Shown here one piece after another: positions 13,547 to 55,518 of a stretch of DNA of 64,000 nt. The stretch comes from an uncultured Eubacteriales bacterium (lineage in GTDB: Bacteria > Bacillota > Clostridia > Christensenellales > UBA1242), in the NCBI GenBank assembly GCA_948607205.1, contig CAPERS010000007.1:833-64832 (forward strand), in the 5' to 3' direction. The notes below the pieces were generated by a model, which worked only from the letters and a program-made list of their open reading frames with translations, had not been told where the DNA came from and searched no databases. The translations under genes were made by a program, and so were the position numbers. Every line of letters begins with the position of its first letter. The first letter of the stretch is position 1.

Positions 13547-14023
13547 TTAGTTCAAACTATTCAAAACCTCTTCTGCATCACCTTCAATCAGAAATAAATC
13601 ATCAACTCTTTTAAATTTTATTCTCTCATACCACGCATATGGCATATTATTTTCACCTAAATAAGTTGCACCACTCAATTTTGTCACGTCATATTTTTCT
13701 TTTGCAAGCAAAATTAAATTTTGCAAAAGTGATTTTGCAATTCCTTTCTTTCGATACTTTTTATCAACTGATATTTCCTCAATCATAAGCCAATTTCCGT
13801 CTGCCCAAGGCTTAATGAAGGAGTAAGTGAACCCGATCCCCCCCGTTTCATTTTTAGCAACTAAAAATAGGTCAGGATTTAAATTAAAGAAAAACTCACA
13901 AGTTTTTATGGCGCTTTCTTACGTCCAGCCTTCATTAAGCTCATTATTGTTATAAATATCCATTAAAAGTTTAGCGCAAAATTGCAAATCACTTCTTTCG
14001 GCTTGTGATATAACACAATTCAT
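13547..14023 (-). pseudogene. GNAT N-acetyltransferase interrupted by one in-frame TAA (codon 35)
   Basis: ATG at 14023 behind GGAGG. The frame is continuous for 159 codons down to the stop at 13547, except for a TAA at 13921-13919. The downstream part carries the GNAT motif KKYRKKGIAKSLL. The track reports only the last 79 codons. Confidence 0.75.
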
Positions 14024-14033
14024 AGGTCCTCCA

Positions 14034-15617: not shown

Positions 15618-16343
15618 CTAAAATTCTCTGTAACTTATTAACTGAACTCCCTCATAAACACCTAACGCAAACGCCTCTTTAAGAACGGCCAGTTCCTTAT
15701 CTCTGTCAAGATAACTTGTCACTGTTTTTGTGTAGTCATCTATGTAGCCGGGATGCGTCACAATCTCAAAAATTTTATCGGTTGACTTATAGGCTTCAAC
15801 AAAACTTTTCAGCGTTTCAATGTTCACATTCTCAATGGTGAAATTATGAAAGAGATAGTCAGGCGATTTTAAATCACTATCATTTTTATCTTTTCGAATG
15901 GGCAAATCAAACTTCTTACAAATATCATTAATTGCGCGCCTAATTTCAGAATTTTCTCGCAAATGGTGGTGAGTGTCAATGTGATCAACTTTGATTTGAC
16001 CTCCGCTTTCTCTTGTAACAAATTCAAACTGCGCCATGATTTCATTGTAAGCATCTTGATAAGTCAGTTTTTCATTGTTTATTTGAGATTTGTTATAATA
16101 AAACACGCCATTCTCATCTGTTAGATTTTCATTCTTTAAAATTGGTTTGCCAACAGTCAAATTCACATGCAAGCCAATGCAGTTGATATTATTTTTGACC
16201 GCCTCTTCAAGCGCATATTTCGCGTATGGCATATTTGCCATTATCGAGGTGCTTGTTATCCCCCCCCCGATTATTCCGCTTATTATGCCGTCAGTGATAC
16301 TTTTGCTTAGACCAAAATCGTCAGCGTTTATGATGAGTTTCAA
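15618..16343 (-). CDS. ChbG/HpnK (YdjC) family carbohydrate deacetylase
   Basis: MKLIINADDFGLS N-terminus and the DHIDTHHHL metal-binding motif. The coding sequence contains a G9 run (complement of 16260-16268) encoding GGG. Confidence 0.85.
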   Translation of the reverse strand: MKLIINADDFGLSKSITDGIISGIIGGGITSTSIMANMPYAKYALEEAVKNNINCIGLHVNLTVGKPILKNENLTDENGVFYYNKSQINNEKLTYQDAYNEIMAQFEFVTRESGGQIKVDHIDTHHHLRENSEIRRAINDICKKFDLPIRKDKNDSDLKSPDYLFHNFTIENVNIETLKSFVEAYKSTDKIFEIVTHPGYIDDYTKTVTSYLDRDKELAVLKEAFALGVYEGVQLISYREF

Positions 16344-17160: not shown

Positions 17161-17242
17161 TGGTGCGGGCGGTGGGACTTGAACCCACACTCTTTCGAAC
17201 ACGCCCCTTAAACGTGCGCGTCTGCCATTCCGCCACGCCCGC
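17161..17242 (-). tRNA. tRNA-Leu (type II, encoded CCA); anticodon loop reads UUAAGGG, giving anticodon AAG
   Basis: Minus strand: GCGGGCG-UG-GCGGAAUGGCAGACGC-G-CACGU-UUAAGGG-GCGUG-UUCGAAAGAGU-GUGGG-UUCAAGU-CCCAC-CGCCCGC-ACCA. The acceptor, anticodon and T stems all pair, and the variable arm is 11 nt. Confidence 0.85.
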
Positions 17243-17453: not shown

Positions 17454-17483
17454 TTGACAAATTCCCCCCCCGATATGTATAAT
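17454..17483 (+). promoter_or_regulatory. sigma-A promoter with a C8 homopolymer in the spacer
   Basis: TTGACA (17454-17459), an 18-nt spacer AATTCCCCCCCCGATATG (C8 at 17464-17471), then TATAAT (17478-17483). AAAGGAG RBS and the ATG at 17502 follow. Confidence 0.55.
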
Positions 17484-17501: not shown

Positions 17502-18578
17502 ATGCAATCAATTTTAAAAGAAAAAGAATTATTAAAAAATAAACAAGTAAAGTTGCCAAAGCAAAGTTTCTTAAGAAATATTCTTGACAACGGAACAAAA
17601 AAGCTTTTTGACCTTTATGGGAATTGGGATTCAGCTTGCTTTGATAGACCCAAAAGACACACAGTAAGTAATATGCCATGTCATCTTCGCAATAATGCAT
17701 GGATGGCTCGCCTTATGCAGTTTGAACTTTTGAAGAATAAGAAATTCGTGCCATATTTGGCAGTTCTTAACTATGTTAAAAATTCAGACTATTTTGAAAA
17801 GCAACGCCATGAATATGAACTTCGAATTGTTAAAAAGCAAATTGAGTTTATGAACGAATGCAAAGACATTTATGGAAGGGCTTTCTATTTTCCAGACAAA
17901 GATATTTTTGGCAAGAAGAAAAAAGGCATAATAACACAAAGTTGGAAAGAATGGGACACAGTAAAGGAAATTTCAGAAGAACAATGGATAAAAGAAATTA
18001 ATGACCCTAAAATAAGTGATGTAGATAAATTTAATAATTATAAATGTCGTCATTTTTTCGGCATAACGTATTTTTATAAAATAACACATCACACAACCAA
18101 AAAATCAGACCCCGTTCGCAACTGGAATTGGGAAGCACAAGAATGCTATCACCTGCATGGAATTAACATCAAAGACGCTGACCTCAACTTCAGAAATGTT
18201 GTTGTGAACATGCTCACAATGATAGGCATGGACGAAGAAGTTGTTAATGAAGGTCTTGAAAAATATTCAGACCTGTGGCGAGATAAATATATGGAAATCG
18301 CTTTTGATAAGGAAACAACTTTTAAAGTAAACGAAAATGAAGATATGATTTCTTTGGGCAAACTTCACAAAATGTGGAAAGATGTTAGACTTTTTGAATA
18401 TTATCAAAATCATAAAGAATGGGTCGACAAATATGGAAAAGTAAGCGACGAAATGGTTATGCCAAAAGAAGAATATTTAACTATGAAAAAAATAGTGAAT
18501 GAGCAAGCACAGTTGCGCAAAGATAACGAAAAAATCGAGAAAAAAAGTGATTTCTTTTCAGAACTTTTAACTGACTAA
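17502..18578 (+). CDS. hypothetical protein (358 aa), no recognisable family
   Basis: Strong promoter and RBS and an uninterrupted ORF. Lys/Glu/Trp/Tyr-rich soluble protein. Plus-strand singleton between tRNA-Leu and clpX. Confidence 0.7.
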   Translation: MQSILKEKELLKNKQVKLPKQSFLRNILDNGTKKLFDLYGNWDSACFDRPKRHTVSNMPCHLRNNAWMARLMQFELLKNKKFVPYLAVLNYVKNSDYFEKQRHEYELRIVKKQIEFMNECKDIYGRAFYFPDKDIFGKKKKGIITQSWKEWDTVKEISEEQWIKEINDPKISDVDKFNNYKCRHFFGITYFYKITHHTTKKSDPVRNWNWEAQECYHLHGINIKDADLNFRNVVVNMLTMIGMDEEVVNEGLEKYSDLWRDKYMEIAFDKETTFKVNENEDMISLGKLHKMWKDVRLFEYYQNHKEWVDKYGKVSDEMVMPKEEYLTMKKIVNEQAQLRKDNEKIEKKSDFFSELLTD

Positions 18579-39165: not shown

Positions 39166-39200
39166 CTATTTTTTAAAAATATTTAAATATTTCTTAATAA

Positions 39201-39385
39201 GTGCCTAAGGCACAACTGTTTTTAATAAATAAATATATTTTTTTTAGTAAGTGCTTAAAGCACAAAAGGTGCATAATGCACCCTAAGACGAAAAATAAGG
39301 CGCTTAAAGCACACCTTATTTTAAAAACAATCAATAGTGTTAGTAAACAAATAATTTGCACAAAAGGTGCATAATGCACCCTAAA
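39201..39385. repeat. cluster of palindromic terminator-like hairpins, including a 27-bp perfect direct repeat
   Basis: GTGCCTAAGGCAC (39201-13), GTGCTTAAAGCAC (39251-63), GGTGCATAATGCACC (39268-82 and 39366-80) and GCGCTTAAAGCAC (39300-12). GCACAAAAGGTGCATAATGCACCCTAA occurs at 39260-86 and again at 39358-84. Confidence 0.7.
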
Positions 39386-39851
39386 CGCCAAAGTCTTCCA
39401 TTTCGCCCATTGCGTCAGAATATTTTTCAGGATGTTCTTCATAATCCTTCAAAAACTTTGCAATGTCTTCTGCTTGCTTTTCTTTTTGTCTATTCATCTC
39501 TGACACAATCTTGTCTTCAAGAGATTGAACCTGCTCAGCAGAATAATCACTCATTCCGTAAATTGACACAGAGCCATTTTTCTTTAAATATTCAAGACTT
39601 GTGACGCCACAACTTATATTAAAAACAATTTCCTTCACAATTTCAACTTCAGTCATTTTTTCTTTAATCATATTTTCCCTCCTATTAATCTCTTCCTGAA
39701 TTTCCTTTTCATACTTTTGAATCTGCTCAGCAGTCACCCAACAATAGCCTGTATTTTTCAAAAGTTCAAGGTTTTGACCAAAAAAGCACCTTGCTGCAAT
39801 GTAGTTGATAATTTTATCCTTAATCAATTCATCATAACTCATTTCTTGCAT
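39381..39851 (-). CDS. hypothetical protein (156 aa) co-transcribed with the XRE regulator
   Basis: AGGAGGGAAATT RBS 10 nt after the XRE stop. Acidic and helical, with an internal two-fold repeat pattern (..NTGYCWVTAEQIQKY.. and ..NGSVSIYGMSDYSAEQVQSL..). The stop TAG abuts a terminator hairpin. Confidence 0.6.
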   Translation of the reverse strand: MQEMSYDELIKDKIINYIAARCFFGQNLELLKNTGYCWVTAEQIQKYEKEIQEEINRRENMIKEKMTEVEIVKEIVFNISCGVTSLEYLKKNGSVSIYGMSDYSAEQVQSLEDKIVSEMNRQKEKQAEDIAKFLKDYEEHPEKYSDAMGEMEDFGV

Positions 39852-47416: not shown

Positions 47417-48472
47417 TTAGTCAATGAAATCCAAAAGTTTTTTGCTTCTGTTTGGATGTTTAAGTTTTCTTAAAGCTTTTGCTTCGATTTGGCGAATTCT
47501 TTCTCTTGTCACGCTGAATTCCTTGCCAACTTCTTCAAGTGTTTTTGCTTTGCCGTCCATAAGACCATAGCGTTCACGAATGACTTGTTGCTCGCGTGGA
47601 GTGAGCGTGTCAATAACTGCAAGAAGTTGTTCACGAAGAAGATTTTGCGATGCAACTTCCATTGGGCTTTTTGCTGACTCGTCTTCAATGAAGTCAGACA
47701 TTTTGCTGTCATCCTCTTCACCCACAGGTGTTTCAAGCGAAACTGGGTCAAGCGCGCTTTTTTGAATTTCAACAACCTTGCTTTCGCTTATACCCATCGC
47801 CTCAGCAATTTCTTCAAGGCTTGGCTCATGAGAAAGTTTTTGTGTGAGTTGGCGCACTGTTCTTCCATAGCGGTTGATTGTTTCCACCATGTGAACAGGC
47901 AAACGAATTGTTCTTGACTGGTCTGCGATTGCGCGAGTTATTGCCTGCTTAATCCACCAAGTTGCATAAGTTGAGAAACGGAAACCTTTTGTGTAGTCAA
48001 ATTTTTCAACTGCTTTGAGAAGACCCATGTTCCCCTCTTGAATAAGGTCAAGAAAAGAAAGTGAGTTTGTTGTTGCCCAACGTTTTGCGATGGAAACAAC
48101 AAGTCTGAGATTGGCTTTGCAGAGCCTTGCCTTTGCCTCTTCGTCACCTTCAAGAATCTTTTTTGCAAGTTCAATTTCTTCATCTGGTGAAAGAAGTGGA
48201 ACTTTTCCGATATCTTTCAAATACATTTTGACAGGGTCGTCAACGCTTGCAAATGGCAAAGATATGTCATCTTTAAGTTCGTCATCTCCATCGCCTGTTG
48301 GCTTGATAATTTTCACGCCATGCTTTTCAAGTTTTTTCAAAAATTTCTGAATGTCCTGTGCAGAAACTTCATACTTGAGAAGTCTGAAATATACATCCTC
48401 TTCGTTTACCGCACCTTTTTTAACAGCGATATCGAAGATTTTTTTCATCTCCTGTTCAATTTTATTTTCCAT
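47417..48472 (-). CDS. rpoD: RNA polymerase primary sigma factor
   Basis: Region 2 ([16 protein letters not shown]) and region 4.2 ([27 protein letters not shown]). dnaG-rpoD operon. Confidence 0.95.
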
Positions 48473-50255
48473 AGAATTCCTCCAAACTTTTTTCTCTTAA
48501 CTCTTTTGCAACTTGTGTCAGTTGACCGATAATCTCCCTTCTTTTTTCAATACTTTCACAAGTTTTAAATTCATCGTTCAGCCTCGACTGCTTGTCCTTC
48601 AAAATATTGTCAGCAAGAAGCCAAACGCACTCATCAAAATATATTTTTGCGATATTTTCAAATTCAGAAAAATCAAAAACAAGACAATCTTTCAAAATTT
48701 GATTATTATCAACATCAAATGCGTCAAAATAACTTGATATACTTAAGCCCTCTTCCGCTTTTTCAATTATGCTTGAAAAATTTGGCAAAAGTTTTTTATA
48801 GTCTATTCTTCCATCCACATAACTTTTTCTGTGAATAAGCGAAGAAAGCACAAACTTCACAGCCCTAATATTCCCATTTTGCCTTGATGTTAAAACATTA
48901 TCCTTCTCCTTTTCTTGAGAAGTTTGCGCAAGTTTATCCTCTTTTGCAACCCTTCCAAAAAGCACGCCAAGGTCACGTCTTAAAACATCGATTGGCACAC
49001 CTGTCATGTCGCGAAGTTTTGCCAGATAGCCTTCAGCCTCGGCCAGTGAGTCCAGTTTTCTCAGCACTGAAAGTGCTTCTTTGATGAAACTACCCTTTTG
49101 GTCAGGCTTTGACAAATCATATTTTTCCTTGGTTACTTCCAAGAGATAGTCAGTCACTGGCAAAGCGTTATCAATCAGCGACTGCATAAAGTCCTTGCCT
49201 TTTGCCTTCAAGATTTCGTCAGGGTCTTTCTTTTCAGGCAGACGAACAATTGATGTTGAAAAGCCTTCCTCTTTCAAAATTTCAATGCTCCGAACTGTCG
49301 CCTTAATTCCCGCCTCATCGCCGTCGAAGCATAGAACAATGTTGTTTGAAAGTTTTTTGAGTTCATGCGCGTTCTCTTTGGTCAGTGCCGTGCCCATGCA
49401 AGCGACAGTGCTTTTGAAGCCCGCCCTATGCATCGCGATAACATCAATTTGACCTTCAACAATGATAATCTTTTCAAGTCCGCCCTGCTTTTTGAGACGC
49501 TTTAGAAGATTGATTCCAAACACAACTCTTCCTTTTTGAAAAACAATTGTTTCTGCTGTGTTTTTGTATTTTGCGAAATCGGTTTTTCCCAGAACTCGAG
49601 CGCTGAAACCAATGCACTCGTCAAAGGAATTGAAAATTGGAAAGACCAGTCTTTCAGCCATTGCATCAAAATACCTTCCATTCTTGCTTTGGCACACGCC
49701 TGCGTCAGTCATTTCTTTGTAAGTGAATCCTTGTTTTCTGAGATAGTCAACGATATCTGTCCAATTGAGTGAATAGCCAAGTTGGAAGTCTTCAAGTTCA
49801 CGTCTTGTGAATCCTCTGAGTTTTATGTATTCTTGTGCAGGCTTTGCATCAGGCAAATACAAGTTTTCACGATAGTGCTTGTATGTCGCATCCAAAAGTT
49901 TTAGAATTCTATCCTTTGCTTTTTTCTTTTCAACAACGTCTTTATCACCAGAAAATTCAGGAACTTCCATATGTGCAAGATTGGCAAGAATTTTTATTGC
50001 ATCTGAAAAATCACATGACTCCATTTTTTGAACAAAAGAGATGACGTCGCCACTTTCCTTGCAACCAAAGCAATAGAAAAGCCCCTCCTCTTCACTTACC
50101 GAAAAAGAAGGTGTCTTTTCATTGTGAAAAGGACAACACCCCCAAAACTTTCTGCCTTTTTTGTCTAAGCGAATATAACGACTTATAACTGAAACAATGT
50201 CATTTTTCTGTTTAAGTTCATAAAGCCACTCGCTTGGATAACCACGACTATTCAA
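48462..50255 (-). CDS. dnaG: DNA primase
   Basis: CHC2 zinc finger ([14 protein letters not shown]...CFGC) and TOPRIM ([15 protein letters not shown]). TTG start behind AGAGAGG. Confidence 0.95.
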
Positions 50256-50487
50256 ATATTACCTCTCTCGTAAAAATAGCACTTTATGATTTTATTATAC
50301 AATAAATATTTTAAATTTCCTCTTTTTTTTGTAAAAAAAATTAACTTTGATTATTTTTTTATAATTTTCCTTGCAAACGTTAACATTTTTCGCATTCGAC
50401 AGATAGAAAAGGTGCATTCAAGCACAACATTACGCCGATTTTTAATTGAATTTATTTTATTTCAATTTTATAGATAATTTTAAACTT

Positions 50488-50634
50488 ACTCTTTATCCGT
50501 TAAAAAGTGCTTAAAGCACACAGCATTATGCTGATTTTTTAATAAAATATGTTATGTTAATTTTTCTATCTCAAAGTTATACTCTTTATCCGTTAAAAAG
50601 TGCTTAAAGCACAAAAAGGTGCCGATTAAGCACC
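50488..50634. repeat. direct repeat copy A (downstream flank of the two-gene cassette), containing two 33-bp units
   Basis: 50499-50617 is identical to 51303-51421 by manual alignment. The 33-bp unit ACTCTTTATCCGTTAAAAAGTGCTTAAAGCACA occurs at 50488-50520 and 50581-50613. Hairpins GTGCTTAAAGCAC, CAGCATTATGCTG and GGTGCCGATTAAGCACC are present. Confidence 0.85.
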
Positions 50635-50711
50635 TAAGTTAATTCAAAACAACAAAAATTTAAGTCAAATAATTTTTATCTTTCAATTTTTTCAATGGTA
50701 TTTTAAGATTA

Positions 50712-50906
50712 TTAGTTATCGCATCCGCACATATCGTGACAGCCACACACCTCTACCATATTACCATTTTCATTGTAATAGAAATATCCATTAACACTCA
50801 AAGACATATTTTCTGCTGGTCGAACTATTTCAACCCCTTTTTCTTTTGTTTCTTGGTTTTCTTCTTTATTTGCGCCTTTCAAAATTGACAAATCTTTTTC
50901 TGTCAT
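50712..50906 (-). CDS. small Cys-rich protein (64 aa) ending in VCGCHDMCGCDN
   Basis: AGGAGG RBS 6 nt upstream of the ATG. Followed by a GGTGC...GCACC hairpin and a T-run. No family recognised. Confidence 0.6.
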   Translation of the reverse strand: MTEKDLSILKGANKEENQETKEKGVEIVRPAENMSLSVNGYFYYNENGNMVEVCGCHDMCGCDN

Positions 50907-50927
50907 ACGTTACCTCCTAAAAATATA

Positions 50928-51239
50928 TTAGCCTAAATTTATCTCTTCATCTTTACTGTTGTTATTGCCGTGATTGATATGGTTTACAAGTTTTTCCGCT
51001 TCATCAAATTCTCTACTGCTTTTAAGCAACTTTTCAGAATATTTTTCCACCTTTTTGCTTGCTCTTTTAAGCATTTTTTTAGCCTTTTTTACTTCGTCAT
51101 CACAGTAGTAATCGGAATAATCGTCATAACCAAAATTGTCGAGTTTCGCTGACTCAGGAAAATTGTCAGAAGAATTATCAAACCCCTCCTGATATTCTTT
51201 ATATACTTGTAACATTTTTTCTTCGATTTCTTGACTCAT
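50928..51239 (-). CDS. hypothetical protein (103 aa; acidic Tyr/Asp-rich N-terminal half, basic helical C-terminal half)
   Basis: Start at ATG 51239, behind AGGAGGG. The track's TTG 51284 is actually the TTGACA -35 box. Confidence 0.6.
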   Translation of the reverse strand: MSQEIEEKMLQVYKEYQEGFDNSSDNFPESAKLDNFGYDDYSDYYCDDEVKKAKKMLKRASKKVEKYSEKLLKSSREFDEAEKLVNHINHGNNNSKDEEINLG

Positions 51240-51258
51240 AACTTCCCTCCTAATTTTC

Positions 51259-51284
51259 ATTATACACGGGGGGGATTTTGTCAA
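51259..51284 (-). promoter_or_regulatory. promoter-like TTGACA/TATAAT pair with a C7 tract and only a 14-nt spacer
   Basis: Minus strand reads TTGACA (51284-51279), AAATCCCCCCCGTG (C7 is the complement of 51268-51274), then TATAAT (51264-51259), 19 nt before the ATG. Confidence 0.4.
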
Positions 51285-51302
51285 GAGTTTTTTTCAAAAA
51301 AA

Positions 51303-51438
51303 GTTAAAAAGTGCTTAAAGCACACAGCATTATGCTGATTTTTTAATAAAATATGTTATGTTAATTTTTCTATCTCAAAGTTATACTCTTTATCCGTTAA
51401 AAAGTGCTTAAAGCACAAAAAAGGTGCTTATTAAGCAC
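51303..51438. repeat. direct repeat copy B (upstream flank of the cassette); also carries the yunB terminator hairpins
   Basis: 51303-51421 is identical to 50499-50617. There is then a 1-nt A-run difference, followed by the related hairpin GGTGCTTATTAAGCAC. The first 33-bp unit is truncated (only its last 22 nt, starting at GTTAAAAAG, remain). Confidence 0.85.
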
Positions 51439-51488: not shown

Positions 51489-52169
51489 TTATCCGTTTGA
51501 AGTGATAAGTCCACCATTTAGATAAATCTCTGGCACTTTGCCGACAATCACGCTTTCGGCAAGCACAACATCAAGGTTTGTCACAAAATTTGAACTTAGC
51601 GCTGGAAGAACCATGCCAATATTGGCAGTGATGTCAAAATATATCTTATGCACTGTCTGATTTATCCCTGCTGACATAAATTCTGAGGTTATCTTTGTGT
51701 TAATCGTTCCGATTGGCACGAGCTGAATTGGCACAAGTGGTCCAATTCCGAAAAGAAATGGAATACCAGTGAATGTTCCAAGTGCAACATCAATCCCCTC
51801 AACAATAAGACCGTCAAGTCGCGACTGCACCATTTCGGTTATCTTTCGAATAATGATGTTTATCTTAACCGAGTTTGTTTCAATGGCTTTAATTTCATTT
51901 GCATCATCATAGGAAATCTTGACAATCTCATCATAAGTGACATTATCATTGACCAAAACCTCAGCCACTGAATCACTCATAACTCGTGTTGAAAGTGAGC
52001 GAATTCGCTCTTCACTTAAAGTTACAATGATTGGACAAATGACTTTGATATAATAAAAAACAAAAAGCGCAAAAAGAGCCAAAATCACACACAATGCAAT
52101 CTTGAACTTGGTTTTACTTTTCATTCCCTTCTTTTTTATTTTATATTTTCGGCAACAATCATTTTGCAT
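51489..52169 (-). CDS. yunB: sporulation protein YunB-like
   Basis: N-terminal TM segment followed by a soluble domain resembling YunB (…VTYDEIVKISYDDANEIKAIETNSVKINII…VLAESVIVGKVPEIY). Sporulation gene neighbourhood. The start is uncertain (ATG 52169 or ATG 52124). Confidence 0.6.
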   Translation of the reverse strand: MQNDCCRKYKIKKKGMKSKTKFKIALCVILALFALFVFYYIKVICPIIVTLSEERIRSLSTRVMSDSVAEVLVNDNVTYDEIVKISYDDANEIKAIETNSVKINIIIRKITEMVQSRLDGLIVEGIDVALGTFTGIPFLFGIGPLVPIQLVPIGTINTKITSEFMSAGINQTVHKIYFDITANIGMVLPALSSNFVTNLDVVLAESVIVGKVPEIYLNGGLITSNG

Positions 52170-52284: not shown

Positions 52285-52641
52285 TTATTTTTTCGTTTTC
52301 GATTTAAAGATAAGACCAAATATGAAAGCAAAGACAACGGCTGCTGCAATGCCACCTGCCGTGGCTTCAAGTCCGCCTGTGAAGGCGCCGATAAGACCTT
52401 TTGCCTTTACTGCCCCAATTGCACCTTTGGCAAGTGACGCACCAAAACCAACGATTGGAACATTTATTCCTGCACGCGCAAACTCTGAAATATAATCAAA
52501 AAGACCAAATGCTTCAAGCGCAACTCCAACCAAAACAAAAGTCACAAGTATGCGCGCTGAGGTGATATTAGTTTTAATAATCAGCACCTGACCTAACATA
52601 CAGACAAAACCGCCAATCAAGAAAACCCAAAGATAATACAT
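52285..52641 (-). CDS. spoVAE: stage V sporulation protein AE (SpoVAEb-type)
   Basis: 118-aa polytopic membrane protein (GINVPIVGFGASLAKG). Follows spoVAD. Confidence 0.85.
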   Translation of the reverse strand: MYYLWVFLIGGFVCMLGQVLIIKTNITSARILVTFVLVGVALEAFGLFDYISEFARAGINVPIVGFGASLAKGAIGAVKAKGLIGAFTGGLEATAGGIAAAVVFAFIFGLIFKSKTKK

Positions 52642-52643
52642 GC

Positions 52644-53648
52644 TTAATCCTCCCCTCGTTCAATCACAACGGCATGACAAATTCCAGGTATAGTTTCGCC
52701 TTGCTGTGCTGCCGTTGTTGACATTAATGCACCAGTTGGCATAAAGAGCACCTTTTTATATTTGCCGTCTTGAAGTTTTTTCATAATGAAAGAATTTAGA
52801 ACGGTTGCACAACATCCGCAACCACTTCCACCTGAAAGTGCAGATTGCTCGCGAGTGAAATACATTTGACCGCAATCATTATAGTTCAGCCCAAGTTTAA
52901 TGCCTTGGTCTTCCATAAGGTCAATAAGAATTTCACTGCCAAGTTTACCAAGGTCACCAGTGACAATAAGGTCATAGTCATCCGGCGTGGTCTTTGTGTC
53001 ACGGAAGTGTGTAAGCATGGTGTCCATGGCAGCAGGAGCCATAACAGCGCCCATATCATTCACATCATTTATTCCCCAGTCAATAACCTTGCCAAATGTT
53101 GCACTGGTCACAACAGGACCTTTGCCACTTTGAGCAAGCACACATGAGCCAGCACCCGTCACCGTCCACTGAGATGTTGGAGGCCTTTGATTGCCAAGTT
53201 CCAATGGAAAACGAAATTGGCGTTCAGCAGTTGAGAAATGAGATGCGGTTGAGCAAACCACATTGTTAAAAAGTCCACCATTGACAAGCGAAGCACCAAC
53301 AGCAATACTTTCAGCCATGGTGGAACAAGCGCCAAAAAGGCCAAGATAGGCGCAACTGAAATCACGCGCAGCGTAGGACGAAGAAATGATTTGATTCAAA
53401 AGGTCACCAGCAAGCAAAAGGTCAACATCACTGGTTTTCAAATGCGCTTTTTCAATCGCACCAATGATTGCATGCTGAATCATCTTCTTTTCGGCCTGCT
53501 CATAGGTTTTTTCGCCAAAGCGGTCGTCTTGCATGATGTAATCAAAATAGTTTTTAAAGTTCCCCTGTCCTTCTTTTGGTCCAACGATAGAATAACTGCC
53601 AATAATGACAGGTCTGTTTTTAAACTTAACAGTTTGAATTTTCGCCAT
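52644..53648 (-). CDS. spoVAD: stage V sporulation protein AD
   Basis: Thiolase-like fold. N-terminus FKNRPVIIGSYSIVGPKEGQG..FD is typical of SpoVAD. Start set at ATG 53648, behind AGGAGA. Confidence 0.9.
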   Translation of the reverse strand: MAKIQTVKFKNRPVIIGSYSIVGPKEGQGNFKNYFDYIMQDDRFGEKTYEQAEKKMIQHAIIGAIEKAHLKTSDVDLLLAGDLLNQIISSSYAARDFSCAYLGLFGACSTMAESIAVGASLVNGGLFNNVVCSTASHFSTAERQFRFPLELGNQRPPTSQWTVTGAGSCVLAQSGKGPVVTSATFGKVIDWGINDVNDMGAVMAPAAMDTMLTHFRDTKTTPDDYDLIVTGDLGKLGSEILIDLMEDQGIKLGLNYNDCGQMYFTREQSALSGGSGCGCCATVLNSFIMKKLQDGKYKKVLFMPTGALMSTTAAQQGETIPGICHAVVIERGED

Positions 53649-53738
53649 ACATTCTCCTATTTTTGATAAAGGATTATTGACAAGTTTTTCACAATTAAAC
53701 ATTGATAAAAGAAAAAATGTGAGTCTTTCTCACACCTT

Positions 53739-54185
53739 TTATATAAATAAATAGATTATTCCCACCAAGACGCTGGCAACAACGCCACTGACAATAACAG
53801 GCCCTGCGATTGTGAACATTTTGACGCAAAGTCCATAGATAATACCCTCATGCTTAAATTCAAGCGCTGGACTTGTGATGGAGTTTGAAAAGCCAGTGAT
53901 TGGCACGATTGAGCCACCGCCTGCAAACTTTCCAATTTTGTCATAGACGCCTATTCCGGTGAGGAATGATGCCAAAAAGATGAGGATTATAAGCGTATAT
54001 CCCCAAGCGGTTTGCTGAGCCATGTTTGGAAACCACAAAAGAATAAGGTCATTTATCCCCTGACCCAAGCAACAGATAATCCCGCCAACCAAAAATGAAT
54101 TGAAAAGCGTTGGCCAAGGTCTTGTTTTGGGTATTTTTGCCTTGACATATTGATTGTAAGCTTCGTTTCTTTGTTTAGCGTCCAT
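53739..54185 (-). CDS. spoVAC: stage V sporulation protein AC
   Basis: 148-aa membrane protein. The YV....P...........FLVGG.IC..GQ pattern and GGGSIVPITGF motif are present. Confidence 0.9.
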   Translation of the reverse strand: MDAKQRNEAYNQYVKAKIPKTRPWPTLFNSFLVGGIICCLGQGINDLILLWFPNMAQQTAWGYTLIILIFLASFLTGIGVYDKIGKFAGGGSIVPITGFSNSITSPALEFKHEGIIYGLCVKMFTIAGPVIVSGVVASVLVGIIYLFI

Positions 54186-54303
54186 AATTATCTCCTAAAT
54201 TTCCTTTTAGCAAATGCTTGCCATTTTTTACAAATTTTAAACAAGAGTTTGCATAATCACAGATTTTTAAGCCAAACTAAAAGAAATTTCAGGAGGTTTT
54301 TTA

Positions 54304-55518
54304 ATGAAAAAATTGGTTTTATCTTCAATTTGCGGTGTTTTAGCGCTTGTCATGGTTGGTTGCGGTTCAAACGGCTCAGCACAAACAACAAAGGACTTAT
54401 CAAATCAAGTCAATCGTTTGCAAAACACAGTGACAAACATTTCAACTTCGGCAATTTACGATGTGACACCAACGAATTATCTCTACAATCAACCACTATC
54501 AAATGATGACACTTCATCTTCAAGATTGAGAGTGCTTATGACTGACAGCCAGTCTGCATTTGCCGAACATGAAGCGTTGAGGCAAGAAATTATGAATAGA
54601 AGCGCAACTCTTAAAAGCGCACTCGGTCAAAAATATAAGTTTTCAAATAACAAAATCAAAGCGTTAAAGACAATAACAAGCACACTCAGCGGATATAACA
54701 CTGACATAACCGGAACAACACACAAAGTGAGCAATGCAACAAATCTGATTAAGCGTTCAAAAAACCTTAACTCATTTGACAGCGACACCCTCAATGTTGG
54801 ATACACAAAACTCAACAACGAACTTGAAAACAGAATAACATTTTTCAAAAATGTTCTCTCTGCTTTTGACCAAGTGGAAGCAATTTTAAGAGAAGGAAGT
54901 GTTATTGAAAACAATTCTGAGCAAAACAATGCCCAAACTGACAACAACACAAATCAAGAAGGCACCACTCAAAGTCGTCGCAAAAATATTGATACTTTCG
55001 GAAACAATCGATATTTCAACGGAACAAACAATCAGCCAAATTGCACAAACGATTGCAACAACATTGCAAACAACGGCATGAATGGCAATTTCAATTATGC
55101 AAACGGATATAACTATAACGGCGTAAATGGCTATGGTTACAACAACGGAATTGGTTATAACGGAATGTATAACAATGCAGGTTTTTATGGTTATGGATTC
55201 AATAGACCATTCTCACCTTTCAATTTTGGACGCAACACAGACACTTATCTTCCAGTTCGCAGAAATATTGACACCTATAGACCAATTGCACCCGTTGAAA
55301 ACAATATTGTTGAAGCAAGTGCAGATATGAGCATATCTGAAAATATTGATGAAATTGAAGATGAAGTTGGCGACGAGGTTAAAGAAAATACTGACAGCAT
55401 TATAAACAAAGCCACAACGAAAATGAGTGAAGAAGGACACAACAAAATTGAAAAGAACATCATTTCAAACAACAGAAAGCGACCTGGTCACGTGATTTCA
55501 AAAAGGCATATCGGCTAG
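54304..55518 (+). CDS. lipoprotein with an Asn/Tyr/Gly-rich low-complexity region
   Basis: Signal peptide with lipobox LVMVGC. The central region reads NGMNGNFNYANGYNYNGVNGYGYNNGIGYNGMYNNAGFYGYGFN. The NIDT(F/Y) motif is repeated, and the tail is acidic. Confidence 0.7.
   Translation: MKKLVLSSICGVLALVMVGCGSNGSAQTTKDLSNQVNRLQNTVTNISTSAIYDVTPTNYLYNQPLSNDDTSSSRLRVLMTDSQSAFAEHEALRQEIMNRSATLKSALGQKYKFSNNKIKALKTITSTLSGYNTDITGTTHKVSNATNLIKRSKNLNSFDSDTLNVGYTKLNNELENRITFFKNVLSAFDQVEAILREGSVIENNSEQNNAQTDNNTNQEGTTQSRRKNIDTFGNNRYFNGTNNQPNCTNDCNNIANNGMNGNFNYANGYNYNGVNGYGYNNGIGYNGMYNNAGFYGYGFNRPFSPFNFGRNTDTYLPVRRNIDTYRPIAPVENNIVEASADMSISENIDEIEDEVGDEVKENTDSIINKATTKMSEEGHNKIEKNIISNNRKRPGHVISKRHIG

Follow-up and report, generated by a model that had tools for sequence, protein, structure and literature searches.

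Duplicated terminator repeats and a poly-C promoter in a probable strain-variable gene islet between yunB and dnaG of an uncultured gut Clostridia species

Do two long, identical direct repeats around a pair of small orphan genes mark the ends of a mobile cassette? The question is raised by the spacer between the sporulation gene yunB and the dnaG-rpoD operon of an uncultured gut Clostridia species (assembly GCA_948607205.1, contig CAPERS010000007.1), for which we analysed a stretch of 64 kb (hereafter the window; 36% GC), covering ~64 kb of the genome. An earlier note on this DNA had proposed that the two genes, here called p103 and p64, form a small mobile cassette inserted by Campbell-type or site-specific recombination at the repeat. 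Overall, the locus holds a genuine but for the most part unremarkable accessory islet. Its one regulatory point of moderate interest is a poly-C tract of variable length in a promoter, which is more notable than the repeats themselves. We consider it probable that the islet is a strain-variable set of accessory genes with gene-converted terminator repeats and a poly-C promoter, and that the repeats are not the ends of a mobile cassette. It would have built up in the yunB-dnaG spacer of this one species, the repeats being copies of a local unit of 93-96 bp.

The repeat pair and the alleles of the spacer

In the direction of the genes, all on the minus strand, the locus reads yunB, repeat copy R2, p103, p64, repeat copy R1, dnaG and rpoD. 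Upstream lies the core gene yunB (51489-52169; sporulation protein YunB; Pfam PF09560, 1.6e-26; TIGR02832, 3.3e-35), and downstream the core operon formed by dnaG (48462-50255; primase, from family search and alignment with the sister-species locus L015) and rpoD (47417-48472); the dnaG promoter region (~50256-50400) is conserved in L015 (L numbers designate the loci fetched for comparison). A repeat search of the window found that R1 (50499-50634) and R2 (51303-51438) are identical over 119 nt (50499-50617 and 51303-51421, 100% identity). Beyond this block, if a one-base offset in an A-run is allowed for, a further stretch of 21 nt agrees at 90% (50613-50633 and 51418-51438), so that the likeness extends to ~136 bp in total, as the earlier note had read by eye. 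This pair is the sole long direct repeat across the window. A 33-bp unit occurs exactly three times (at 50488, 50581 and 51385, vs 0 expected by chance), always at the yunB-dnaG locus, and the repeat copy at 51303 does begin 11 nt inside it, the upstream junction thus cutting the unit as had been described. The two genes bracketed by the repeats are likewise as first reported: p103 (50928-51239, minus strand) encodes an acidic protein of 103 aa (isoelectric point, pI, 4.9) from an ATG behind AGGAGGG, and p64 (50712-50906, minus strand), behind AGGAGG, an acidic protein of 64 aa (pI 4.5) that ends in CGCHDMCGCDN. Both ribosome-binding sites are of the AGGAGG type and well spaced.

We first consider whether the duplication is a mis-assembly of a repeat-containing spacer. 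Contigs built from short reads often end within the repeat, and one low-coverage contig, L116, is scrambled (0.87x coverage; discarded). The same architecture is nevertheless present in at least eight independent contigs, among them metagenome-assembled genomes (MAGs) from NCBI, ENA assemblies and a 407-kb JGI contig, which carry strain-specific single-nucleotide polymorphisms (SNPs) in both repeat copies. An identical layout in independent assemblies indicates that the repeat is not an assembly artefact, an origin that we regard as extremely improbable.

A scan with DnaG over one genome per species identifies the organism as an uncultured, Christensenellales-like Clostridia known from gut metagenomes. 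Alleles were compared by mapping yunB, p103, p64 and dnaG on all fetched loci. The empty allele is found in the sister species (L015; ~80-88% nucleotide identity to the window, with mosaic patches of 95-99%), where yunB and dnaG are separated by 228 bp that contain one terminator hairpin, GGTGCTAAAAAAGCACC followed by a T-run, no small genes and none of the repeated unit of ~95 bp. Junction mapping by BLAST shows that L015 aligns to the window at 51560-51415, from yunB through the hairpin T1', then jumps to 50418-50201, resuming at the hairpin T0, which immediately precedes the dnaG promoter. The segment absent from L015 (~50419-51415, minus strand) thus measures ~997 bp, with a GTGC...GCAC terminator hairpin at each border. 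Since this extra DNA holds both repeat copies, the repeats are not att-like junctions. In about 16 more distant relatives syntenic for yunB and dnaG, the spacer measures 115-850 bp and both genes are absent. The proposed insertion into a simple spacer between the yunB terminator and the dnaG promoter therefore stands, but recombination at the repeat does not fit borders that lie outside the repeats, and the empty site looked for in relatives carries a single terminator hairpin instead of the expected single copy of the repeat.

Non-empty alleles differ in gene number. L011 carries p64 alone, behind an unrelated 100-bp segment with TTGACA-17-TAAAAT and with no upstream repeat; the window and L001-L010 carry p103 and p64; L014 carries both genes and a third one of 241 aa with two transmembrane (TM) segments, located at the place of T1 in the window. 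The junctions of the L014 gene modules coincide with parts of the unit. p64 is the part of the islet kept in every non-empty allele, and every contig found to encode it places it after yunB and/or before dnaG. The empty, one-, two- and three-gene alleles form a compact natural series for studying the gain of orphan genes.

Small genes of the two-TM, coiled-coil type also lie just upstream of dnaG in several loci (L014, 6402-7127; L016, 40-519; L021, 5332-5886), and BLASTP detected no homology among the three. That other species (L016, L021) house unrelated small genes for membrane proteins at this position indicates that genes have entered the spacer repeatedly. Within the islet, gene gain and loss would probably have been stepwise, through recombination events located at the palindromic terminator hairpins or beside them.

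Divergence of the repeat copies and of the insert

The two copies of the repeat resemble each other within a genome more than they resemble their positional orthologs. The identity of R2 to R1 amounts to 100% (window), 99.2% (L004) and 88.1% (L014), while between the window and L014 identity is 77.7% for R2 and 81.6% for R1. In the clade of the window, both copies share a variant AT-rich middle that is found in no unit of L014 or L011. Moreover, at one diagnostic position (R2/R1), L001 and L004-L006 have G/A, the window G/G and L002 A/A, all being otherwise near-identical strains. Greater likeness within a genome than between positional orthologs, together with a homogenised SNP, points to gene conversion between the copies. 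The copies of L014, only 88% alike, and the within-genome pattern further indicate that the 119-bp identity is not the scar of a fresh integration. Judging from this population pattern, the perfect identity is a derived, clade-specific state kept by gene conversion.

Gene conversion drives concerted evolution of short duplicated segments, and the repeat pair behaves likewise, with copies 88-100% identical within a genome vs 78-82% between orthologs and a SNP homogenised in either direction. We see no difference in kind, the duplicated segments being here terminator modules 804 bp apart. If this reading is right, duplicated terminator modules and gene conversion can together mimic the ends of a mobile element, which calls for caution in searches for elements based on repeats.

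The insert is far less diverged than its flanks. Third-position divergence from the window (L004, L014) amounts to 1-6% in p103 and p64, compared to 20-28% in yunB and 4-9% in dnaG; between the window and L011, p64 displays one third-position (synonymous) difference in 65 codons vs 20% in yunB (P ~8e-6). At the nucleotide level, L004 is 99-100% identical to the window over the cassette and 83-95% over the flanks. Such a contrast indicates that the insert is young or recently spread. It fits a recent gain followed by spread of the islet alleles between strains, in which homologous recombination would act through the core genes on either side. We also observed a mosaic of identity in yunB (51489-52169) and at 52300-54400 along L004, L011, L014 and L015, with patches of 95-99% common to L015. 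Mosaic identity and a divergent yunB suggest that recombination between strains, and between species, is frequent in this region.

These data bear directly on the cassette initially proposed, which would be an 804-bp mobile unit composed of p103, p64 and one repeat, integrating and excising at the repeat through a remote recombinase or a Campbell-type circle. It would account for exact 119-bp direct repeats around the genes, for the absence of these genes from the sister species and from all more distant relatives, for a cassette less diverged than its flanks, for an insert bounded by palindromic hairpins and sitting in a terminator T-run, and for L014 module junctions that also coincide with parts of the unit. 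It does not account for an empty site without a repeat copy and insert borders outside the repeats, for alleles with one (L011) or three (L014) genes, nor for flanking copies only 88% identical in L014; in addition, the repeat belongs to a tandem array (see below), p64 was found only at the yunB-dnaG locus, and the insert and its products have no match in the phage, plasmid and viral sequences searched. No recombinase was detected in the precomputed Pfam families of genes over ~7-9 kb on each side, nor among the further open reading frames (ORFs) scanned, which are part of those of the window; the earlier remark that none lies nearby is thus borne out. An allele deleted between R1 and R2, which would leave a single repeat, was not found among the fetched contigs by RpoD, SpoVAE and YunB lookups, in which contigs end inside the repeat. 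From the idea of a mobile two-gene cassette we retain a recent insertion of ~1 kb; the repeats are not its ends and the insertion is not all-or-none. Mobility of the 804-bp unit appears to us distinctly unlikely, and the gradual build-up of an islet remains the preferred reading.

Terminator hairpins, the repeated unit and the orphan genes

A terminator scan found 15 terminator-like hairpins in the region, compared to 1.1 expected, and each repeat copy is a string of small hairpins of this type. The string begins with T1 or T1' (AGGTGC...GCACCT) and a T-run, followed by hairpin a (GTGCTTTAAGCAC and T5), AACGGATAAAGAGT, ~60 nt of AT-rich DNA, a CAGCATAATGCTG hairpin and hairpin a once more. In R2, read in gene direction, these are the T1' hairpin, hairpin a, AACGGATAAAGAGT, the 60-nt AT-rich S segment, the CAGCATAATGCTG hairpin and a second hairpin a, which is cut off after TTTTTAAC. 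RNA folding pairs T1 and a into one long stem. Two compound intrinsic terminators result, both on the minus strand: one 3' of yunB (51404-51438; T1' GTGCTTAATAAGCAC, T-run, hairpin a GTGCTTTAAGCAC, T5; -17.1 kcal/mol, z = -4.6), whose T1' part is also present in the empty-site genome L015, and one 3' of p64 (50600-50635; T1 AGGTGCTTAATCGGCACCT, T5, hairpin a, T5; -17.0 kcal/mol, z = -4.9). With folds of about -17 kcal/mol and a T5 tail, both are predicted to be strong intrinsic terminators. The head of the unit and the hairpin that precedes it would thus form a compound terminator, one ending the yunB transcript and the other the p103-p64 transcript ahead of the dnaG-rpoD promoter. From folding and position, the most likely role of the repeats would be to insulate three successive transcription units.

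R1 itself belongs to a tandem array. Tandem Repeats Finder detects a 93-bp unit in 2.2 copies with 78% matches (50407-50614, minus strand), and a single alignment sets all the pieces in register. The third copy, on the dnaG side, has diverged, and its end is formed by hairpin T0 (GTGCATTCAAGCAC on the plus strand, 50412-50425). The equivalent array of L014 has a period of 96 bp with 88% matches, and L011 has one unit fewer downstream.

Is the unit confined to this locus? GTGC-N5-GCAC occurs 10 times in the window, compared to 0.25 expected, with occurrences clustered at the yunB-dnaG locus and at 39.2-39.4 kb. At this second intergenic site, and at no other in the window, a 19-nt hairpin module (TTTTGTGCTTTAAGCACTT) recurs within a pair of hairpins as at the yunB-dnaG locus; the AT-rich remainder of the unit is absent there, the hairpin module alone being shared. 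The question of the repeat unit elsewhere thus receives a divided answer, the 33-bp unit being found only here in 64 kb and the smaller module at one further place. The second site (39200-39385) lies downstream of an ORF at 39381-39851 (minus strand) and displays five hairpins of the GTGC-N5-GCAC type, including the same compound module; TTAGGGTGCATTATGCACCTTTTGTGC is duplicated there ~98 bp apart, with no gene between the copies. In Rfam, one tRNA elsewhere was the only match over the whole window at the gathering threshold, and the locus gave none at E <= 1. A metagenome collection scanned for a 21-mer of the unit returned a single match, unrelated and due to chance; as this species is absent from the collection, the scan is uninformative on genome-wide dispersal.

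Hairpin units that flank small genes recall two known systems. The attC site of integrons is an imperfect palindrome with an inverse core (RYYYAAC) and a core (GTTRRRY) at opposite ends, which folds end to end as single-stranded DNA; the integron carries the IntI integrase with attI and the promoter Pc beside an array of varied, mostly promoterless cassettes. Repetitive extragenic palindromes and the bacterial interspersed mosaic elements that they compose (REP/BIME) are intergenic palindromic repeats of enterobacteria, present in many dispersed genome copies and associated with a RAYT/IS200-like transposase. By analogy, the hairpin units could be attC-like or REP-like sites that capture small genes at terminators. 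In line with this, small orphan genes of a single orientation lie between repeats of 120-136 bp, the second site at 39.2-39.4 kb carries the hairpin module along with a local duplication of its own, and the copy number of the unit varies between strains. The likeness to integron cassettes with attC sites (Vibrio cholerae repeats, VCRs) lies in these high-identity repeats of ~120-130 bp around same-orientation small ORFs. Unlike integron cassettes, the pair of genes has its own promoter and the repeat is present in two copies at one fixed site. Neither the flanks nor the ORFs scanned encode an integrase of the IntI family. The repeat has no pair of inverse core and core sites, as its two GTTAAAA motifs are both direct and lack an inverse counterpart, nor does it form an end-to-end imperfect palindrome, its single strand folding into local hairpins with pairing between the two a copies. 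Like REP/BIME, the locus has GC-containing palindromes downstream of genes, in local arrays of strain-variable copy number and with terminator-like structure. Unlike them, the unit is ~95 bp long, mostly AT-rich and known only at this locus, the second site sharing the 19-nt hairpin module and not the unit, and no RAYT/IS200-type transposase was seen among the window ORFs scanned. We judge a capture system of either type very improbable.

A related proposal sees in the ~95-bp unit a non-autonomous, recombinogenic element, analogous to attC or REP elements, that would target intrinsic terminators with the help of a remote recombinase and would capture and shuffle small orphans, which would then be expressed from phase-variable poly-C promoters. 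A gene-capturing unit would explain alleles of zero to three genes with junctions at parts of the unit. If true, the capture element and the poly-C promoters would constitute an undescribed system of gene capture and contingency expression in gut Clostridia. We rate this as quite improbable.

The proteins encoded by the islet have no recognisable relatives, as had been suspected from their sequences. p103 and p64 gave no match above threshold in Pfam, NCBIfam, PHROGs and PADLOC, only same-species clusters in a word-indexed search of 5.8 billion proteins and only noise in a sequence search of the PDB; when 1.84 billion representatives were searched exhaustively with HMMER, p103 matched itself alone. 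There was no match either in phages (tblastn with p103 and p64), in plasmids (blastn with the insert) or in scans of viral contigs with the unit and both proteins, and neither the window nor the relatives contain a paralog of the insert or DNA from which it could derive. By these searches, both genes are species-restricted orphans. Their products are hydrophilic, with no predicted transmembrane or signal segments. p103 is predicted to form two helices (residues 2-24 and 47-90) joined by an acidic disordered linker; run without an alignment, AlphaFold2 returns these two helices (predicted local distance difference test, pLDDT, 75.7; predicted template modelling score, pTM, 0.36), and its model of p64 is poor (pLDDT 51). 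The reading frames of both are intact in all good assemblies, and in L011 p64 is kept behind a different consensus promoter. Together with the ribosome-binding sites, the intact frames and the retention of p64 with a new promoter provide circumstantial support for p103 and p64 being real genes. In a contig of ~2x coverage (L117, 356-478; ERZ14867592), an allele of p64 carries a 31-bp internal deletion that shifts the frame, which may be a natural disruption or a low-coverage assembly error.

Three functional candidates were rejected. An apparent likeness of p64 residues 39-53 to a cell-wall-binding repeat is unsupported by Pfam, and we make no claim of it. A leader of the double-glycine type at the N-terminus of p64 (DLSILKGA) is too short and has no transporter context. 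A toxin-antitoxin pair has no match over threshold in Pfam, NCBIfam or PADLOC, and p64 stands alone in L011.

Where did these genes come from? One possibility is an origin in situ, in which the array grew in the spacer and p103, perhaps also p64, arose from array-derived or local non-coding DNA. Local alignment of the p103 coding DNA with the antisense of the terminator array scores above chance (p = 0.004-0.01, uncorrected for four tests). The likeness extends over only ~32 nt, indels included, and becomes borderline once corrected, and p64 shows none; it is a weak hint that leaves room for an in-situ origin of part of p103. Two degenerate copies, 45 nt apart, that resemble the reverse complement of hairpin a and its T-run are seen in the p103 coding region at ~51021-51089. 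A de novo origin would also agree with the absence of homologs outside the species in the 5.8 billion and 1.84 billion sequences searched, with the absence of any DNA match to the insert in relatives, phages and plasmids, with the low GC content of the genes (32-34% vs 37-38.5% in the neighbour genes) and with the simple predicted structure of p103, two helices and a disordered acidic linker. On the other hand, no non-coding precursor allele was found among the loci compared, and import from an unsampled phage or plasmid would equally explain the orphan status. We consider an in-situ origin unlikely, and retain the islet of genes gained stepwise.

Poly-C promoters

The TTGACA/TATAAT pair reported upstream of the first gene does exist (51259-51284, minus strand), as a promoter of the sigma-A type whose hexamers (TTGACA, 51279-51284; TATAAT, 51259-51264) are separated by a 14-nt spacer, AAAT-C7-GTG; its homopolymeric tract had passed unremarked. 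With such a spacer, the promoter is not listed by a scan that requires 16-18 nt. The poly-C tract (51268-51274 on the minus strand, G7 on the plus strand) varies in length between strains. Among 10 independent assemblies, we observed C7 in the window, L001 and L002, C8 in L004 and L005, and C9 in L006, L007, L008, L010 and L014. Note that L004 and L005 differ from L006 only by the poly-C tract over ~1265 bp.

A second promoter of this kind is found on the plus strand at 17454-17483 (TTGACA-AATT-C8-GATATG-TATAAT, 18-nt spacer), upstream of an orphan ORF of 358 aa (17502-18578, plus strand) that has no Pfam family and lies beside a tRNA (17164-17242, minus strand). Its tract (17464-17471) measures C8 both in the window and in L096; L095, drawn from the near-identical MAG contig that also provided L001, has C9. 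C/G runs of at least 7 are limited to four in 64 kb at 36% GC. From these sequence comparisons, both poly-C promoters are likely phase-variable.

The optimal spacer between -35 and -10 hexamers of sigma-70 promoters is 17 nt. With C7, C8 and C9 the hexamers are 14, 15 and 16 nt apart, and a C10 tract would bring them to this optimum of 17 nt. From these standard rules, the C7 allele of the window is predicted to be weak or off. p103 and p64 would probably be co-transcribed from this sigma-A-type promoter with its hypermutable poly-C spacer, and slipped-strand changes in tract length would probably switch or tune their expression.

In Neisseria meningitidis, porA (poly-G) and opc (poly-C) have phase-variable promoters with homopolymeric tracts between the -35 and -10 hexamers. 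The p103 promoter resembles these by its 7-9 C located in the spacer between consensus TTGACA and TATAAT, by a tract length that varies between otherwise identical strains (spacers of 14-16 nt), and by the second promoter of the same genome, which is built alike. It differs by its host, an uncultured sporulating gut Clostridia, and by its targets, small cytoplasmic orphans instead of surface antigens; switching is suggested here by differences between strain assemblies. Promoters that vary in phase through homopolymeric tracts form a well-known class (for an overview of homopolymeric tracts, see PMC2831843). Two consensus promoters with poly-C tracts, both ahead of orphan genes, represent a more useful lead than the repeats. 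Slipped-strand phase variation of promoters, best known in Gram-negative pathogens, is suggested also in this poorly studied gut lineage, and the tracts mark p103, p64 and the 358-aa ORF as candidate contingency genes.

Several points weigh against the islet reading. The activities of terminators and promoters are predictions, and the mechanism of gene gain is deduced from the positions of junctions. No donor was found for the insert, nor for the unique 100 bp of L011. The tract lengths come from short-read metagenome assemblies and may in part be assembly noise. The 6-7 synonymous and 6-7 non-synonymous changes counted overall in the small genes are too few to prove purifying selection. Finally, the unit was counted in 64 kb, a count that may be compatible with a dispersed mobile repeat family.

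Two further C/G runs were noted. An apparently broken gene for a GNAT acetyltransferase (13547-14026, minus strand) contains a C7 run at 13838-13844: a short N-terminal ORF starts from ~14026 behind GGAGG and is followed by the G7/C7 run and by a C-terminal ORF of 79 aa (13547-13786). From its sequence, it may be a contingency locus of the frameshift type or a pseudogene. In a YdjC-family gene (ORF 15618-16343, minus strand), three successive glycines close to the N-terminus are encoded by a C9 run at 16260-16268 (G9 on the coding strand), where a one-base slip would change the frame. Lastly, on the opposite strand between spoVAC and sigF, an ORF of 404 aa (54304-55518, plus strand) without Pfam family displays a lipoprotein-like N-terminus and a long low-complexity region rich in N, G and Y, and measures 404 or 408 aa depending on the strain.

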